The translations under genes were made by a program, and so were the position numbers. This document shows, piece after piece, positions 24,050 to 45,305 of a DNA stretch of 64,000 bases (its first letter is position 1; every line of letters begins with the position of its first letter). The notes beneath the pieces were generated by a model. The model did not search any database. It was not told the origin of the DNA and saw only the letters and a list, made by a program, of their open reading frames with translations. The DNA is taken from IMG/VR virus record IMGVR_UViG_3300036876_000145, positions 19,489 to 83,488 of that record; one strand, given 5' to 3'. The DNA is from a virus. Lineage: Duplodnaviria; Heunggongvirae; Uroviricota; Caudoviricetes.

Positions 24050-24133
24050 TTGCAATATGTTGATTTTAAAAGGTTTAAAAATACACAAAATAGGTGTTCT
24101 CAATGTATACTATAGGTGGAGGGGACACCGCTA

Positions 24134-25156: not shown

Positions 25157-25162
25157 AATAAG

Positions 25163-25309
25163 TCTTGACAAATTTTCCAACTATCAGTATTATATAAAGA
25201 GTAGTTGGTTCGGAACGAGCCATCAGGCGTTAACGTAGAAGTATTAAATTCAAGCGTAGCCTGAGAATCTTTATGTGGGGGAGAACCCGCATTTAAAAAA
25301 GAAGTTCAA
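25163..25309 (+). repeat. ~145-bp direct repeat copy 1 (promoter plus conserved leader)
   Basis: Near-identical to 35663-35808. Confidence 0.8.
25166..25194 (+). promoter_or_regulatory. sigma70-type promoter (TTGACA-17-TATTAT) heading tRNA cluster 1; part of the 145-bp repeat
   Basis: cTTGACAaattttccaactatcagTATTATat, near-consensus. Confidence 0.55.
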
Positions 25310-39421: not shown

Positions 39422-39967
39422 ATGGCAGACACTTTAATTCTTGACCAAAACTGGCAACCACAGTCTTTTTGTAACTGGCAGAACGCTGTGAAATTGATAT
39501 ATGAAGGGCGTGCTCAAGTTATCAAAGAAGACGAGGGTGGGCGCATTTTACGGTCTCCTTCTCTGGAATGGAAGATGCCAAGGGTTATTGTTGTCAAAAA
39601 CGCTTGGGTTCGTAGGAAGCGTTTGTCCGTTCCTTTCTCCAGACGCAACATCGCGGTTAGGGATAATAGCGGGTGTCAGTACTGCGGTAGGGTATTGAAG
39701 ACTCAGGAATATACTCTTGACCACGTAATGCCTCGTTCTCAAGGTGGTGTATCTTCATGGACCAATTTGGTGCTCGCCTGTGTGCGCTGCAACAAGCGTA
39801 AGGCCGGTCAGACACCTAAGGAAGCTGGCATGCACTTACTTAAGCAGCCCGTGGAGCCGAAGAAGGACGATCCGAAGTACAACTTCAAGCTTCACATTAA
39901 CAAGCTACGGCCAGAATGGAAAGAGTGGGAAACCTGGCTATATTGGAATGTGGAACTAGAAGCGTAG
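39422..39967 (+). CDS. HNH endonuclease
   Basis: CQYCG...LDHVMPRSQGG...NLVLACVRCNKRK canonical HNHc motif; followed by the hairpin tgacacg...cgtgtca. Confidence 0.75.
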   Translation: MADTLILDQNWQPQSFCNWQNAVKLIYEGRAQVIKEDEGGRILRSPSLEWKMPRVIVVKNAWVRRKRLSVPFSRRNIAVRDNSGCQYCGRVLKTQEYTLDHVMPRSQGGVSSWTNLVLACVRCNKRKAGQTPKEAGMHLLKQPVEPKKDDPKYNFKLHINKLRPEWKEWETWLYWNVELEA

Positions 39968-40065
39968 AAGCTTTGACACGATCCTTTACGTGTCACATCT
40001 GGTCCCGGATGTGCTGACCCAGCTTAAAGGGTAGGGACTACCAATTTATGAACGGAAGTTGAGCC

Positions 40066-40142
40066 ATCCTCGTACCGGCCTCGTTTCCTAAACGAGTAAC
40101 CGTAAAGGAGCAATGTGGGTTCGAGTCCCACCGAGGATACCA
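40066..40142 (+). tRNA. tRNA-Arg (CCT)-like with a reduced D-arm and enlarged variable region
   Basis: Perfect acceptor atcctcg/cgaggat plus A and CCA; T-arm gtgggttcgagtcccac; anticodon hairpin ctcgt-ttCCTaa-acgag. Only 7 nt between acceptor and anticodon stem. 18-nt variable region. Confidence 0.45.
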
Positions 40143-40295
40143 GGTTTTTATGTACATCAAATGCAGCATATTCGATGTGGATTTGGATCATGTATTTGAT
40201 GAGTTTCTTTTTCAGTTGACAGATATAACACTTCCTGATACACTGGAACTTGATGATCAAAAGATAGATAATCAAGAAGATTATAAACTACGAGA

Positions 40296-40341
40296 GTATT
40301 TATTGAAGGCTACAAAATAAGCATTGAAGGTCTTGCGAAAA
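40296..40341 (+). repeat. 46-bp direct repeat copy 1
   Basis: gaaggctacaaaataagcattgaaggtcttgcgaaaaccaagctgg, identical to 63955-64000 at the window end. Confidence 0.7.
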
Positions 40342-40612
40342 CCAAGCTGGCTAAATCAATGCTGGATGTTGCATTCGGGAAATAAGAATTAAGAATTCTC
40401 GACGCCTTGGGATACATGGAGTCGTTAAACGACTGCGGACAGTGTGTAAGTCTGGCGAAAGCCAGCAGCGCTGGTTGAAACAGTTAAGGGCGGCGTTAGC
40501 CGCCTAGAATCTCCCGCCTTTAGGCGTGGGAGTATCAATATGATGGTAATTCTTAACAACACGCTCACCACGCTTCACCTCAGACCTAAACGCTAAATTT
40601 CCGCGTTCAAAA
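40342..40612 (+). ncRNA. non-coding structured region with multiple GNRA-capped hairpins
   Basis: No ORF. Hairpins agtcgtt-aa-acgact, ctggc-GAAA-gccag, gggcggc-gtta-gccgcc, ctcccgcc...ggcgtgggag. Lies between the 46-bp repeat and tRNA-Arg(TCT). Confidence 0.3.
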
Positions 40613-40686
40613 ATCTCTAAATGCCTCTATCGTCCAACTGGAAGGGCACCGGCCTTCTAAGCCGTGGATCCGGGTTCAAGTCCTGG
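40613..40686 (+). tRNA. tRNA-Arg (TCT)
   Basis: Acceptor gcctcta/tggaggt, anticodon loop ctTCTaa, T-arm ccgggttcaagtcctgg, CCA encoded. Confidence 0.65.
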
Positions 40687-40698
40687 TGGAGGTACCAA

Positions 40699-40774
40699 AA
40701 ATTTTAATGCCCCCGTAGCTCAGTTGGTAGAGCCACCGCCTTTTAAGCGGAGGGTCGCTGGATCGTTCCCGGCC
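40699..40774 (+). tRNA. tRNA-Lys (TTT)
   Basis: Acceptor gcccccg/cgggggt, D-arm gctcagttggtagagc, anticodon loop ctTTTaa, T-loop atcgttc, CCA encoded. Confidence 0.65.
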
Positions 40775-40780
40775 GGGGGT

Positions 40781-40856
40781 ACCAAACTTTGGGTGTATCG
40801 TCTAATGGCTAAGACCCCGATCTTTTAAATCGGCCGATTTCGGTTCGAGTCCGAAT
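40781..40856 (+). tRNA. tRNA-Lys (TTT), second copy with a different body
   Basis: Acceptor gggtgta/tgcaccc, anticodon stem ccgat/atcgg with loop ctTTTaa, T-arm ttcggttcgagtccgaa, CCA encoded. Confidence 0.65.
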
Positions 40857-40952
40857 GCACCCACCAAATATTCTACTTGACAAATTCCCCCTAAAACTCT
40901 TAAAGTAAAAATAGGTAACCGAAACCTCGTCAGACCAACCGGAGATGTTTTA

Positions 40953-41461: not shown

Positions 41462-42778
41462 ATGATGAAAAAAGAAATGACCCTTTTGGGTCTAGTCGCC
41501 GCTACGTATTTTATGGTAAGCGGAGGCCCGTACGGTCTAGAAGACCTAATTGCTCAAACTGGTTACGGATGGGGAATACTCATTCTTTGCTTAGTGCCCT
41601 TCCTGTGGGCACTGCCAACCGCTATGATGGTTGGTGAACTCGCCTCTGCGATACCGAATCGCGGGGGTTTTTATATTTGGGTGCAACGTGCCCTTGGAAA
41701 ATTTTGGGGATTCCAGGAAGCTTGGCTTTCATTAGCGGCTTCCATATTTGATATGGGAATCTACCCGCTACTTTTTATTTCTTACCTGGGTGTATTGGCT
41801 CCAAGTTTCACCGCAGGGTGGCACGGCTCGCTTATAGCAACGGCTCTAATCGCTGTTTGCGTATTGTGGAACCTTCGGGGTGCCAAAGCTGTAGGAAACG
41901 GCTCTGTGGCGTTAGGAGCCCTTATGGTGAGCCCTTTTGTGATTATCACCCTAGCAGCTCTCCGACACGCCCATCTGACCCATGTTACGGGTCATCCTCA
42001 CGCCGTCAGTCTTATGGGCGGTATTATGGTCGCTATGTGGAACTTCATGGGTTGGGATAACGCCAGCACCATAGCCACAGAAGTCAAAAAACCTCAACGA
42101 ACCTACCCCATCGCCATGATGGTGACTATGCTGTTGATTGTTGGAAGCTATATTCTCCCCGTAGCAGCGTCTTGGTATCTGGGAGTACCCCTGTCTGCCT
42201 GGTCAACAGGGAGTTGGGCGACTATTGGTGAAATCATCGCGGGTTCTTGGGTACGAGACGCCATTGTACTGGGTGGAATGATCAGTGCAGCGGGGATGTT
42301 GAACTCCCTCATGATGAGCTATTCTCGTATTCCCCCAGCGCTGGCTGAAGATCATTATCTGCCTCGCATATTCACAAAAATAAATGCAGTGTCAGTTCCC
42401 ATGATAGCTTTATTTGCCTTGGCGACAGTTTGGGCAACAGCGTTCGGTTTGAATTTTGACCGTCTGGTGATGCTGGATATTTTACTTTATGGAACGAGTC
42501 TTATTCTGGAGTTTATCGCTTTAGTGGTATTGCGTTGGAAAGAACCAGATTTGCCTCGACCTTTTCGTGTGCCTGGGGGAAAATTGGGCGCTATCTTGGT
42601 AGGAGTTTGCCCAACGATACTTCTCTTCGCGGCCGGTATTTTTGGGGATCATAACGGACTATTGCTAGGCTTAGGCATGATTCTATCCGGGGTGGGTGCT
42701 TGGTGTGGAATTCATGGATTTCGTGCCGCTAAATATGAAAAAATCGCTCCCACTTTCTCAACTACCACGATCCCCTAA
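41462..42778 (+). CDS. APC-superfamily amino acid/polyamine permease
   Basis: 12-TM pattern; N-terminal GGPYGLEDLI...GELASAIPNRGGFYIWVQRALG typical of amino acid permeases. Confidence 0.85.
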   Translation: MMKKEMTLLGLVAATYFMVSGGPYGLEDLIAQTGYGWGILILCLVPFLWALPTAMMVGELASAIPNRGGFYIWVQRALGKFWGFQEAWLSLAASIFDMGIYPLLFISYLGVLAPSFTAGWHGSLIATALIAVCVLWNLRGAKAVGNGSVALGALMVSPFVIITLAALRHAHLTHVTGHPHAVSLMGGIMVAMWNFMGWDNASTIATEVKKPQRTYPIAMMVTMLLIVGSYILPVAASWYLGVPLSAWSTGSWATIGEIIAGSWVRDAIVLGGMISAAGMLNSLMMSYSRIPPALAEDHYLPRIFTKINAVSVPMIALFALATVWATAFGLNFDRLVMLDILLYGTSLILEFIALVVLRWKEPDLPRPFRVPGGKLGAILVGVCPTILLFAAGIFGDHNGLLLGLGMILSGVGAWCGIHGFRAAKYEKIAPTFSTTTIP

Positions 42779-44037: not shown

Positions 44038-44543
44038 ACTATCAAAATAAACTTCAAAAAATACAAAAAGAGTTTGTGCTGGGAATAAAAGATAAATTCA
44101 CCTGTATGACTAAATTTGAGCAAGTTTTATGGGAATACGGTCTTCTACCAAAACAAGAAGAGTTAGATAGGGAAATGTCTAATGAACATTTTTCTCGCTT
44201 GATACAAATGGCTATGGAACATACAGATACTCATTCAGATCGAGATCCTGAAAATAGTGAAGAATTGGATAATGAATACGCAGCGGCTTTTTATTCTGTA
44301 AGAGTTTGCCCAATTTGTCATATTACGCAATCCCGTCCATTAGTTGGTAGCGTGAGTGATTTAGCTCGAAAAATAACTGCATTAAACCCTCCTCGTTGTG
44401 AACGCTGCGCCATTGATTGGATGAAAAAACATCTAGAGAATTCCCCAAAAGGTGAAAATGTAGATTTGATAAAACCACTTAGCAAAGAAGAGAAAAAATT
44501 TTTTGATGAGTATGAGAAGGAAATGGAAGACTTTGAGGTTTAG
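44034..44543 (+). CDS. hypothetical zinc-binding protein
   Basis: 169 aa; CPICH...CERCA. Confidence 0.45.
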   Translation: MNYQNKLQKIQKEFVLGIKDKFTCMTKFEQVLWEYGLLPKQEELDREMSNEHFSRLIQMAMEHTDTHSDRDPENSEELDNEYAAAFYSVRVCPICHITQSRPLVGSVSDLARKITALNPPRCERCAIDWMKKHLENSPKGENVDLIKPLSKEEKKFFDEYEKEMEDFEV

Positions 44544-45232
44544 TGGTATTATTATGGTATATGAATATGAACGGCTCGACGAGCGCAATCCCGCCGCTTT
44601 GCGGTGGGTTAGCGAGTGCCTTGGTTCTCGACGTCGCAGTTATGGCGGACCCACAGAATGGTACCGTTCAACATCTCGGATTCAACCCAGCGGCAACCAA
44701 GTACAACTGGAGACGCAGGAGAGCCAACCTCAAGAGTGCAGGCAAGCGTCGTACACTGCGCCAACTGAGCCGTAAGCAATCACGACGTACAACACATGAG
44801 AATCACATCGTGTCTAAGCAAATAGTTTCCTATGCCGTAAAGCATCACCGCGCAATTGCCGTAGAAAACCTTGAGACAGTTCGTAAGCCGAACAGCAAGA
44901 TTCGGAAGTACGTCGAGAAGTCTCAATGGTCTTTCTATCAGTTGTTGTCGTTCCTCAAGTACAAAGCGGCTTTGCACGGCGTTATCATCGCGGAAGTCAA
45001 TCCTGCATACACCTCGCAGAATTGCTCTCGCTGTGGACAGCGGAACACTCCAAACGGCAAGAAGTACGTTTGCGAGCATTGCGGACACACCGACCATAGA
45101 GATGCTAACGCGGCATTCAACATCGCCAAGCGCGGTATTGAGTTCCTATCTATGGGCGGCACTCACGACTCAGAGCGCGTGAGCGGGGCTGTATTGGTGA
45201 CGCCCTATTCTGGAGGACCAGCATATGCTTAG
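44543..45232 (+). pseudogene. IS200/IS605-family TnpB (OrfB) remnant: C-terminal RuvC-II/III plus zinc finger only
   Basis: IAVENLE (RuvC-II), CSRCGQ...CEHCGHTDHRDANAAFNIAKRG (zinc finger plus RuvC-III). The N-terminal ~170 aa and the RuvC-I GIDLG Asp are absent (HLGFNP). GC-rich. Confidence 0.55.
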
Positions 45233-45305
45233 CATAATGTCACGGTTCGAAAGAATCCCAGAGTTCTACTCTGGGAGCATCAAATCGAATTTTAAGGAGA
45301 TAATT

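Follow-up and report, generated by a model that had tools for sequence, protein, structure and literature searches.

A 46-bp repeat in a tRNA-rich phage genome probably marks two deletion derivatives of an IS608-like element that keep a TnpB guide-RNA scaffold

The stretch of Caudoviricetes DNA analysed here (64,000 nucleotides of IMG/VR virus record IMGVR_UViG_3300036876_000145, hereafter the window) contains an exact 46-mer, GAAGGCTACAAAATAAGCATTGAAGGTCTTGCGAAAACCAAGCTGG, which occurs twice on the plus strand, at 40305-40350 and 63955-64000, with a spacing of 23,650 bp. Judged by 100 dinucleotide-preserving shuffles of the window, the number of such recurrences expected by chance is 0. Comparison with full-length relatives makes it highly probable that the two copies derive by deletion from a single IS608-like insertion sequence (IS) of the IS200/IS605 family. 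Considered alone, the identity of the feature as an IS608-like relic with an ωRNA, i.e. the guide RNA of the TnpB protein, is a shade firmer still. The feature is a known kind of selfish element, PATE-like, and not a new RNA class; what might have been a new structured non-coding RNA (ncRNA) next to tRNAs is replaced by a well-understood identity, a miniature IS608-type element keeping the TnpB guide-RNA scaffold.

The repeat and its full-length relatives

A first-pass annotation, made from the sequence of the window alone, had described this pair of direct repeats and their common orientation correctly, and had placed the start of the first copy 9 nt too early (40296 instead of 40305). It had regarded an end of the identity at 46 bp, followed by unrelated sequence, as fatal to its proposal. 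Extension past the window end shows a longer unit instead. Contigs reaching beyond position 64000 were found through a 200-aa metallophosphatase-like protein (63095-63697), which many metagenome contigs encode in identical form; ~10 kb of further sequence is available from five of these contigs (L001-L005). In all five the similarity of copy 2 to copy 1 runs on, for another 167 nt in a short variant (L001-L004) or 188 nt in a long variant (L005). The unit of copy 2 ends at position 11073 of L002 (...GGGGAGTATCAA), which aligns to position 40538 of the window. The whole unit is ~234 nt long in copy 1 and in L005, and ~213 nt long in L001-L004, which carry two additional small deletions. The exact 46-mer had no match in IMG/VR; shorter cores from the structured part did match, and the homologs were retrieved from this database with patterns taken from inside the scaffold described below.

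In the full-length IMG/VR relatives the order is TTAC, left-end (LE) hairpin, promoter, tnpA (Y1 transposase), tnpB, ωRNA overlapping the 3' end of tnpB, and right-end (RE) hairpin terminating in ...TCAA. The 148-nt structured segment sits at the 3' end of a 396-aa open reading frame (ORF) in five IMG/VR contigs (L011-L015). Pfam recognises the HTH_OrfB_IS605, OrfB_IS605 and Cas12f1-like_TNB domains in this ORF, and it matches the ISDra2 TnpB structures in the PDB over nearly its full length (E = 2e-65). The gene located just upstream of tnpB starts with ATGGCACTAGAAGGCTACAAA (MALEGYK) and matches Pfam Y1_Tnp with E = 1.1e-42 (L012, L014, L015). Copy 2 reads ATGGCACTC-GAAGGCTACAAA-ATAAGCATTGAAGGT..., and the first 12 nt of the 46-mer correspond to tnpA codons 4-7. 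When the window was compared with the 396-aa TnpB of L011 (tblastn), residues 277-298, i.e. the RuvC-II region, were found at 82% identity and residues 368-396 at 86% identity, and nothing else was kept; residues 299-367 are deleted in the window copies. By this comparison, the 46-mer reads as the tnpA::tnpB deletion junction region, in which a fragment of the RuvC-II region of tnpB follows directly on tnpA codons 4-7.

An autonomous IS200/IS605 member encodes a Y1 TnpA and, optionally, TnpB, as the elements of L012, L014 and L015 do. Each window copy has only 4-7 tnpA codons and ~50 tnpB codons left, and both are therefore derivatives and not autonomous members. Outside the IS, tblastx revealed no real relatedness between the window and the contigs with full-length elements, and no relative of the window was found among GenBank phages (megablast, blastn).

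The ends of the element follow the recognition code of IS608, in which the cleavage sites are CL = TTAC and CR = TCAA and the guide sequences are GL = AAAG and GR = GAAT (PMC3201880, PMC5934647). All four tetranucleotides are identical here, and the foot of each hairpin is directly preceded on its 5' side by the 4-nt guide sequence. Left flanks from four independent contexts (window, L007, L017 and L014/L015) part just upstream of a common TTACC, and the right flanks of all homologous elements part directly after ...GTATCAA. Subterminal imperfect palindromes are present at both ends of copy 2, where the RE hairpin lies at about 11045-11066 of L002, and only at the RE in copy 1; there are no terminal inverted repeats. 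The features of both copies within the window are as follows.

40216-40244, plus strand: sigma70-like promoter match, 60 nt upstream of copy 1 (TTGACA-17-TACACT, TG-extended; 10/12 positions, pattern match only)
40305-40350, plus strand: 46-mer, copy 1 (origin from comparison with L012, L014 and L015)
40305-40316, plus strand: remnant of tnpA codons 4-7, copy 1 (GAAGGCTACAAA = E-G-Y-K)
40317-40382, plus strand: tnpB fragment, copy 1, equivalent to TnpB residues 277-298 (tblastn)
40391-40538, plus strand: putative ωRNA (reRNA) scaffold, copy 1, ~148 nt, its 5' part overlapping former tnpB codons 368-396
40507-40538, plus strand: RE of copy 1, with GR GAAT at 40507-40510, subterminal imperfect palindrome at 40511-40532 and cleavage site TCAA at 40535-40538
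40539-40554, plus strand: segment of copy 1 corresponding to the guide (TATGATGGTAATTCTT), directly adjoining the RE on its 3' side; the 16-nt length is assumed from ISDra2
63701-63704, plus strand: TTAC target and left cleavage site of copy 2, also the expected target-adjacent motif (TAM), 4 nt past the stop of the metallophosphatase gene (63095-63697)
63705-63743, plus strand: LE of copy 2, with 94-97% identity to the LE of L012, L014 and L015
63718-63721, plus strand: GL AAAG of copy 2, followed by the imperfect palindrome CCCCTGCC-TTCA-GGCATGGG at 63722-63741
63745-63806, minus strand: truncated tRNA-Asn(GUU) between the LE hairpin and the promoter (partial Rfam tRNA match, 24.4 bits)
63910-63939, plus strand: tnpA promoter of the element, copy 2 (TTGACA-18-TATATT, TG-extended; consensus scan, 11/12)
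63946-63966, plus strand: tnpA codons 1-7, copy 2 (ATGGCACTCGAAGGCTACAAA; comparison with full-length tnpA)
63955-64000, plus strand: 46-mer, copy 2, cut by the window end

Copy 2 has the makeup of a complete, gene-less, PATE-like mini-element inserted 3' of TTAC. Its order is TTAC, LE, a ~160-nt foreign segment, the tnpA promoter, seven tnpA codons, tnpB fragments, ωRNA and RE; both ends are present without an intact gene, and the same deletion junction occurs at three or more TTAC sites. The promoter, which had already been pointed out as sigma70-like in the first-pass annotation, has a homologous counterpart (TTGACA...TATAGT) upstream of tnpA in L014. The tRNA-like remnant said to precede copy 2 is also there (minus strand, 63741-63806). 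This truncated tRNA-Asn(GUU) segment is present neither in L007 nor in the full-length elements, and an intact 86-nt tRNA-Asn(gtt) was called by ARAGORN in L019 (366-451), a contig whose sequence matches the window with 100% identity starting at 63745. As L019 has no LE and its left flank is unrelated, a rearrangement at this site is indicated. The remnant has a long variable arm and has become attached to the mini-element's LE hairpin.

Copy 1 begins abruptly at tnpA codon 4, without ATG, promoter and LE, and keeps the ωRNA and the RE. It lacks the LE expected of a PATE-like element and is best called a 5'-truncated relic. The 56-codon ORF at 40150-40320 (plus strand) has its stop within copy 1, as had been stated earlier. 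This ORF is called as a gene on several contigs, it contains the promoter-like site 40216-40244, and most of its differences between population variants change the amino acid (F>L, F>L, D>E, Q>R); it may perhaps be no real gene. Downstream of copy 1, tRNA-Arg(TCT) starts at 40623 (ARAGORN), in agreement with the earlier description. The RNA of 270 nt that was supposed to run up to this tRNA proved to be shorter: the conserved structured unit stops at 40538, and the 84 nt from 40539 to the tRNA are not common to copy 2.

The probable ωRNA scaffold

From its homology and position, we identify the segment 40391-40538 as a TnpB ωRNA (reRNA) scaffold, which overlaps the former end of tnpB and stops at the RE. 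As it stops there, read-through transcription would append flanking DNA as a guide. The predicted structural elements of copy 1 are listed below.

40400-40409 / 40415-40424: helix H1
40440-40445 / 40468-40473: helix H3
40452-40456 / 40461-40465: helix H4, GAAA loop
40488-40494 / 40499-40505: helix H5, GUUA loop
40510-40518 / 40523-40531: helix H6, UUUA loop
40411-40414 (GAUA) with 40533-40536 (UAUC): candidate pseudoknot

The structure was derived from an alignment (A2) of 12 distinct homologs, including the independent deletion derivatives L006, L009, L010 and L035, as well as L021, a diverged version located beside a 59%-identical TnpB in an Acidobacteriota metagenome-assembled genome (MAG). 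RNAalifold found compensatory change in 17 of the 40 pairs of A2. In the revised structure, which has a new first hairpin and the candidate pseudoknot, 96.2% of cells are paired and both sides have changed in 20 of 40 pairs, 10 of these 20 being backed by at least two close-family sequences. The covariation score is 0.292, versus 0.046-0.057 for controls with the partners displaced by 1-3 columns, and none of 500 shuffles reaches the observed values. One RNAalifold helix (columns 31-36/40-45) was rejected: it is broken in L010 and L021 and has 0 compensatory changes, and the hairpin at columns 11-20/26-35, which has three, was preferred. The GAAA-capped helix (loop 40457-40460) and the GTTA-capped helix (loop 40495-40498) noticed in the first-pass annotation both exist and are supported by covariation.

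The stems of the two copies differ at columns 19/27 (U-A to C-G), 65/74 (G-C to U-A or G.U) and 79 (U.G to U-A), and the differences are compensatory or wobble-preserving save at column 13, where one pair is broken. The covariance model R1, derived from A2, scored 172 bits for copy 1 and 180 bits for copy 2 (L002, 10926-11073). At four distant loci, whose TnpBs are only 33-38% identical, it gave weak full-length matches (E = 0.07-0.4), each on the same strand as a tnpB match and at its 3' end. Single-sequence folds recover helices 3-5, with minimum free energy z-scores of -3.5 (copy 1) and -1.8. When the 327 nt delimited in the first pass were folded as a single sequence, z was about -2.9 to -3.0 on both strands, and the strands are not told apart in this way. 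A degenerate-pattern scan for more diverged RNAs yielded nothing new.

In Rfam, only tRNAs matched, both at gathering thresholds and at permissive ones across the candidate and its surroundings (39950-40900 at E <= 10; L002 10600-13600 at E <= 1), and the readings as a group I intron, a GOLLD/ROOL-type RNA, a riboswitch or a ribozyme are therefore rejected. Among the earlier suggestions, the one that came closest took the repeat as the start (5' end) of an ncRNA gene present twice, the second time only up to the window end, and copy 2 indeed enters the same covariation-supported structured RNA. However, the 46-mer is a tnpA/tnpB fusion by origin, and the RNA is an ωRNA scaffold, not a new free-standing ncRNA.

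Mobility, guides and rival explanations

A pattern for the tnpA::tnpB deletion junction retrieved the same deleted form after TTAC in two more left-flank contexts (L007/L016/L020 and L017/L018); L007 is a related phage, in which the element occupies a different locus. The occurrence of this form in at least three left flanks indicates that it was mobilised after gene loss, a step for which TnpA must have been supplied in trans. Viral contigs L006, L009 and L010 and a Terracidiphilus MAG (L035) harbour other derivatives, truncated or deleted, whose junctions are different. Copy 1 is truncated identically in each of the 10 population variants retrieved, with 0 variable positions in the 148-nt scaffold versus 5 in the 158 nt upstream; its coding remnant shows one single-nucleotide polymorphism and one 5-nt deletion (L056). 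The nearest chromosomal TnpBs come from Acidobacteriota MAGs, which is only a hint that Acidobacteriota might host the phage.

The guide of ISDra2 is 16 nt long (PMC10097598). For the corresponding segment of copy 1, no second match with at most 2 mismatches was found in the window or the retrieved contigs. The guide equivalent of copy 2 is its right flank, GCTATGAAAACTGGGC, and an empty allele of this copy would read ...AAAGCTTAC joined directly to GCTATGAAAACTGGGC.

Based on these observations, we suggest that internal deletions removed all but 7 tnpA codons and all but ~50 tnpB codons, and that the LE, the tnpA promoter, the scaffold and the RE stayed. Transcription, started in copy 2 at the promoter of the element and for copy 1 at a phage promoter lying upstream, would then pass through the scaffold and across the RE, and the transcript would be an ωRNA whose last ~16 nt are flanking DNA serving as a guide. 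TnpB encoded elsewhere might bind this ωRNA, and could come from a co-infecting phage, from complete elements residing in the chromosome of the host or from an unseen region of this genome; the complex would cut TTAC-flanked alleles without the element, and recombinational repair would restore or spread it. TnpA supplied in trans could move copy 2, not copy 1. In this model the ωRNA would be used by TnpB in trans; that it is in use at present seems to us a little short of an even bet.

Several points weigh against this explanation. Neither a target nor an empty site was found for either guide in the window, the retrieved contigs and IMG/VR, and neither an intact TnpB nor an intact TnpA turned up in the 64-kb window and the 9.7 kb beyond it, with 14 diverse TnpBs among the queries. 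The promoters from which the scaffolds would be expressed are pattern matches only. Copy 1, having no LE, cannot transpose and may be a dead relic, and the contrast in variation between its scaffold and the upstream sequence is weak (p roughly 0.06 by estimate). The covariation comes from 12 related sequences, and the other 10 of the 20 covarying pairs rest on the single divergent L021. Helix H6 doubles as the DNA hairpin recognised by TnpA, so its covariation is not RNA-specific. The candidate pseudoknot appears analogous to that of ISDra2 and is too short to be decisive, as it has only 4 pairs, which are 100% paired and show one compensatory change (U-A to C-G in L021). The retention of the scaffold in all independent deletion derivatives was considered as a sign of selection and was rejected on account of ascertainment bias: the search patterns lay inside the scaffold, which is a small fraction of the element, and retention among the homologs is not independent evidence.

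The main rival accepts the IS608-like identity and regards both copies as inert decay products, whose ωRNA is no longer transcribed or used and is intact only by virtue of recent origin. We consider it quite possible, if somewhat less probable than its opposite. It draws on the 74 kb of sequence without TnpB or TnpA, the missing LE of copy 1, the empty search for guide targets, the presence of further decayed relics in the genome (44543-45283 and L002 18921-19110) and the erosion of the coding remnants, i.e. the 5-nt deletion in L056 and the additional deletions in the short variant. On the other hand, deletions come near the scaffold and never into it, the stem differences between the copies are mostly compensatory, the near-consensus promoter of copy 2 points at the scaffold, the deleted form still moved to at least three TTAC sites, and complete cognate elements are in circulation, both in Acidobacteriota MAGs and in metagenomes of a similar kind. 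At the other extreme, the phage might keep promoter-driven, TnpB-less ωRNA genes on purpose and recruit TnpB, or a nuclease-dead relative, from the host or a co-infecting element; this is an improbable idea. If it were true, the complex would cut TTAC-flanked alleles of competing genomes, an RNA-guided analogue of phage 'intronless homing' that would drag the adjacent tRNA cargo along. Slightly more doubtful yet is domestication, in which the orphan ωRNAs, as promoter-driven guide RNAs, would direct either a TnpB of phage or host origin or a TldR-like, nuclease-dead protein to a specific target, with the outcome that competing phage or host DNA is cut or repressed, or that the neighbouring tRNA cargo is driven into co-infecting relatives. 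The fixation of copy 1 in one truncated form with an invariant scaffold in 10/10 population variants and the promoter matches at both copies would fit such a role, and TnpB-derived guide systems are reported to have been exapted in prophages (PMC10705468). Yet there is no partner protein gene nearby, the search gave neither guide a target beyond the element's own flank, and the guides are simply the DNA beside the RE, as in any IS605-family insertion.

Two readings without an IS have hardly any credibility left. The copies could have been a free-standing structured ncRNA unrelated to transposons, e.g. group-I-intron-like or tRNA-associated, or integrase att or recombination sites by tRNA genes, the latter being another option of the first-pass annotation. 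The segment is rich in GNRA loops, has tRNA genes as neighbours and is more stably folded than its shuffles (z about -2.9), but the reverse strand folds equally well as a single sequence and no Rfam family matches at E <= 10. There are no exons to join and no integrase is involved; the ends are TTAC/TCAA sites of the IS608 type with subterminal hairpins, and the protein-level identity to tnpB fragments is 82-86%. The comparison with full-length elements (TnpB, Y1 transposase, IS608-type ends) effectively refutes this reading. Nor is there support for the copies as ends of a duplicated module, as had also been proposed: ordinary phage genes lie between them, and they are separate instances of one element. 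That the unit encodes a small protein is equally hard to credit. The short variant of copy 2 does contain an in-frame 53-codon fusion ORF (MALEGYKISIEGLAKTKL...), called as a gene in L001 (10852-11013), but a stop at GGGAAATAAG closes the frame in the long variant (L005, L017) as well as in copy 1, which also has no start codon, and the substitutions track base pairing, not codons.

Genome context and likeness to known systems

The window represents a phage-like genome with nearly all long ORFs on the plus strand and 21 tRNA genes (ARAGORN), and more tRNA arrays lie just past its end. At least four IS605-type relics are present in this genome. The third, at 44543-45283 (plus strand), is of the IS608 type and contains a TnpB-like ORF truncated at its N-terminus, in which only the TNB domain is left (Pfam E = 1e-24); diverse TnpBs match 44522-45187, an RE-like end (AAGAATCCCAGAGTTCTACTCTGGGAGCATCAA) stops at 45283, just before a Peptidase_M24 gene, and a possible LE-like hairpin (CCCGCCGCTTTGCGGTGGG) lies near 44593. 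Its alignment to the ωRNA model is confined to the terminal RE part (6.9 bits); it belongs to a different lineage and was rejected as a third copy of the unit. The fourth relic lies ~8 kb past the window end (L002 18921-19110), where an ORF of 51 codons corresponds to residues 1-40 of a different TnpB, with 72% identity to the 347-aa TnpB of L006, and is followed by a hairpin (CCCAGACTTCAAGTCTGGG) at L002 19089.

Other observations concern the tRNA-rich regions and their promoters. A tRNA-like sequence at 40066-40139 (plus strand), directly downstream of an HNH endonuclease gene (39422-39967), lacks the D-arm, has a long variable region and the anticodon loop UUCCUAA (CCU, Arg), and scores 36.6 bits with the Rfam tRNA model; it is not called by ARAGORN. 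An amino-acid permease gene (41462-42778, plus strand; AA_permease_2, E = 8e-46), located just downstream of the tRNA cluster, is seemingly an unusual phage auxiliary gene. A direct repeat of 124 nt, 97% identical between its copies at 25158-25281 and 35669-35792 (plus strand), consists of a strong promoter (CTTGACAAATTTTCCAACTATCAGTATTATAT) and a conserved ~100-nt leader ahead of two tRNA arrays; this type of promoter is also found in the related phage contig L007 (10350-10388). A four-member repeat family, GTGTT...GATGTATACTA, is located upstream of ORF starts at 24078, 49788, 51478 and 51898 (plus strand) and has 40-nt exact matches in L007; it is probably a phage-specific promoter type. 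Past the window, following copy 2, 472 nt without a called gene (L002 11332-11803), rich in GNRA-like loops, separate a promoter-like site from an N6/N4 DNA methyltransferase gene; this leader has no Rfam match and its folding energy is ordinary (z = -0.65).

The two copies offer a clean natural example of an IS605-family element shrunk to an RNA-only form, with the ωRNA intact, datable deletion junctions and a deleted form that is still mobile, and they show that such elements reside in a tRNA-rich phage. They also add a new pair of ωRNA scaffold and cognate TnpB, with TTAC as the expected TAM, which is related to ISDra2 TnpB and absent from Rfam. A new question would be opened only if the phage turned out to make use of the orphan guides.

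Among known systems, IS608 of Helicobacter pylori, the type element of the IS605 group in the IS200/IS605 family, shares with the window copies the insertion 3' of TTAC, GL AAAG, GR GAAT, cleavage after TCAA and the absence of terminal inverted repeats, and the full-length relatives have the same order of tnpA (Y1) and tnpB. The window copies differ in having lost both genes. The distance from TTAC to the foot of the left hairpin is 17 nt here versus 19 nt in IS608, and cleavage occurs ~6 nt past the right foot versus 10 nt; moreover, copy 2 holds the ~160-nt foreign segment with the truncated tRNA-Asn between the LE and the promoter.

The ωRNA of ISDra2 from Deinococcus radiodurans (8H1J, 8EXA) has a multi-stem scaffold of ~116 nt, in which positions -5 to -3 pair with the 5' scaffold and a UUUA loop occupies -20 to -17 (PMC10097598). 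Like the RNA described here, it overlaps the 3' end of tnpB, stops at the RE and takes its guide from the flank. A guide-adjacent pairing is common to both, UAUC at -6 to -3 being able to pair with the GAUA loop of helix 1 in our case, as is a last stem capped by UUUA (here at -21 to -18), and the cognate proteins are homologous (E = 2e-65). In contrast, the RNAs have no detectable sequence similarity to each other, Rfam holds no family for the present one, TTAC is expected as the TAM instead of TTGAT, an additional hairpin (H5) is present, which is dispensable as judged by its absence in L021, and no TnpB is encoded in cis. The guide RNAs associated with TldRs, the nuclease-dead TnpB repressors, are likewise TnpB-type guides in (pro)phage contexts without transposition; they differ in that no TldR or TnpB gene is adjacent here, and the guide is the local flank, for which no promoter target was identified.

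Another parallel is provided by the PATEs of Geobacillus stearothermophilus. PATE-like elements 'often encode ωRNAs' on which TnpB must act in trans (Meers et al., PMC10055086), and copy 2 similarly has an LE and RE, no intact gene and an ωRNA that would need TnpB in trans; it was also moved in trans, as the same deleted form lies at three or more TTAC sites. The present elements reside in a tRNA-rich phage genome instead of a bacterial chromosome, and one of the two copies lacks the LE. They also differ from PATEs in that fragments of tnpA and tnpB and the tnpA promoter are still recognisable, and the element is therefore evolutionarily young.

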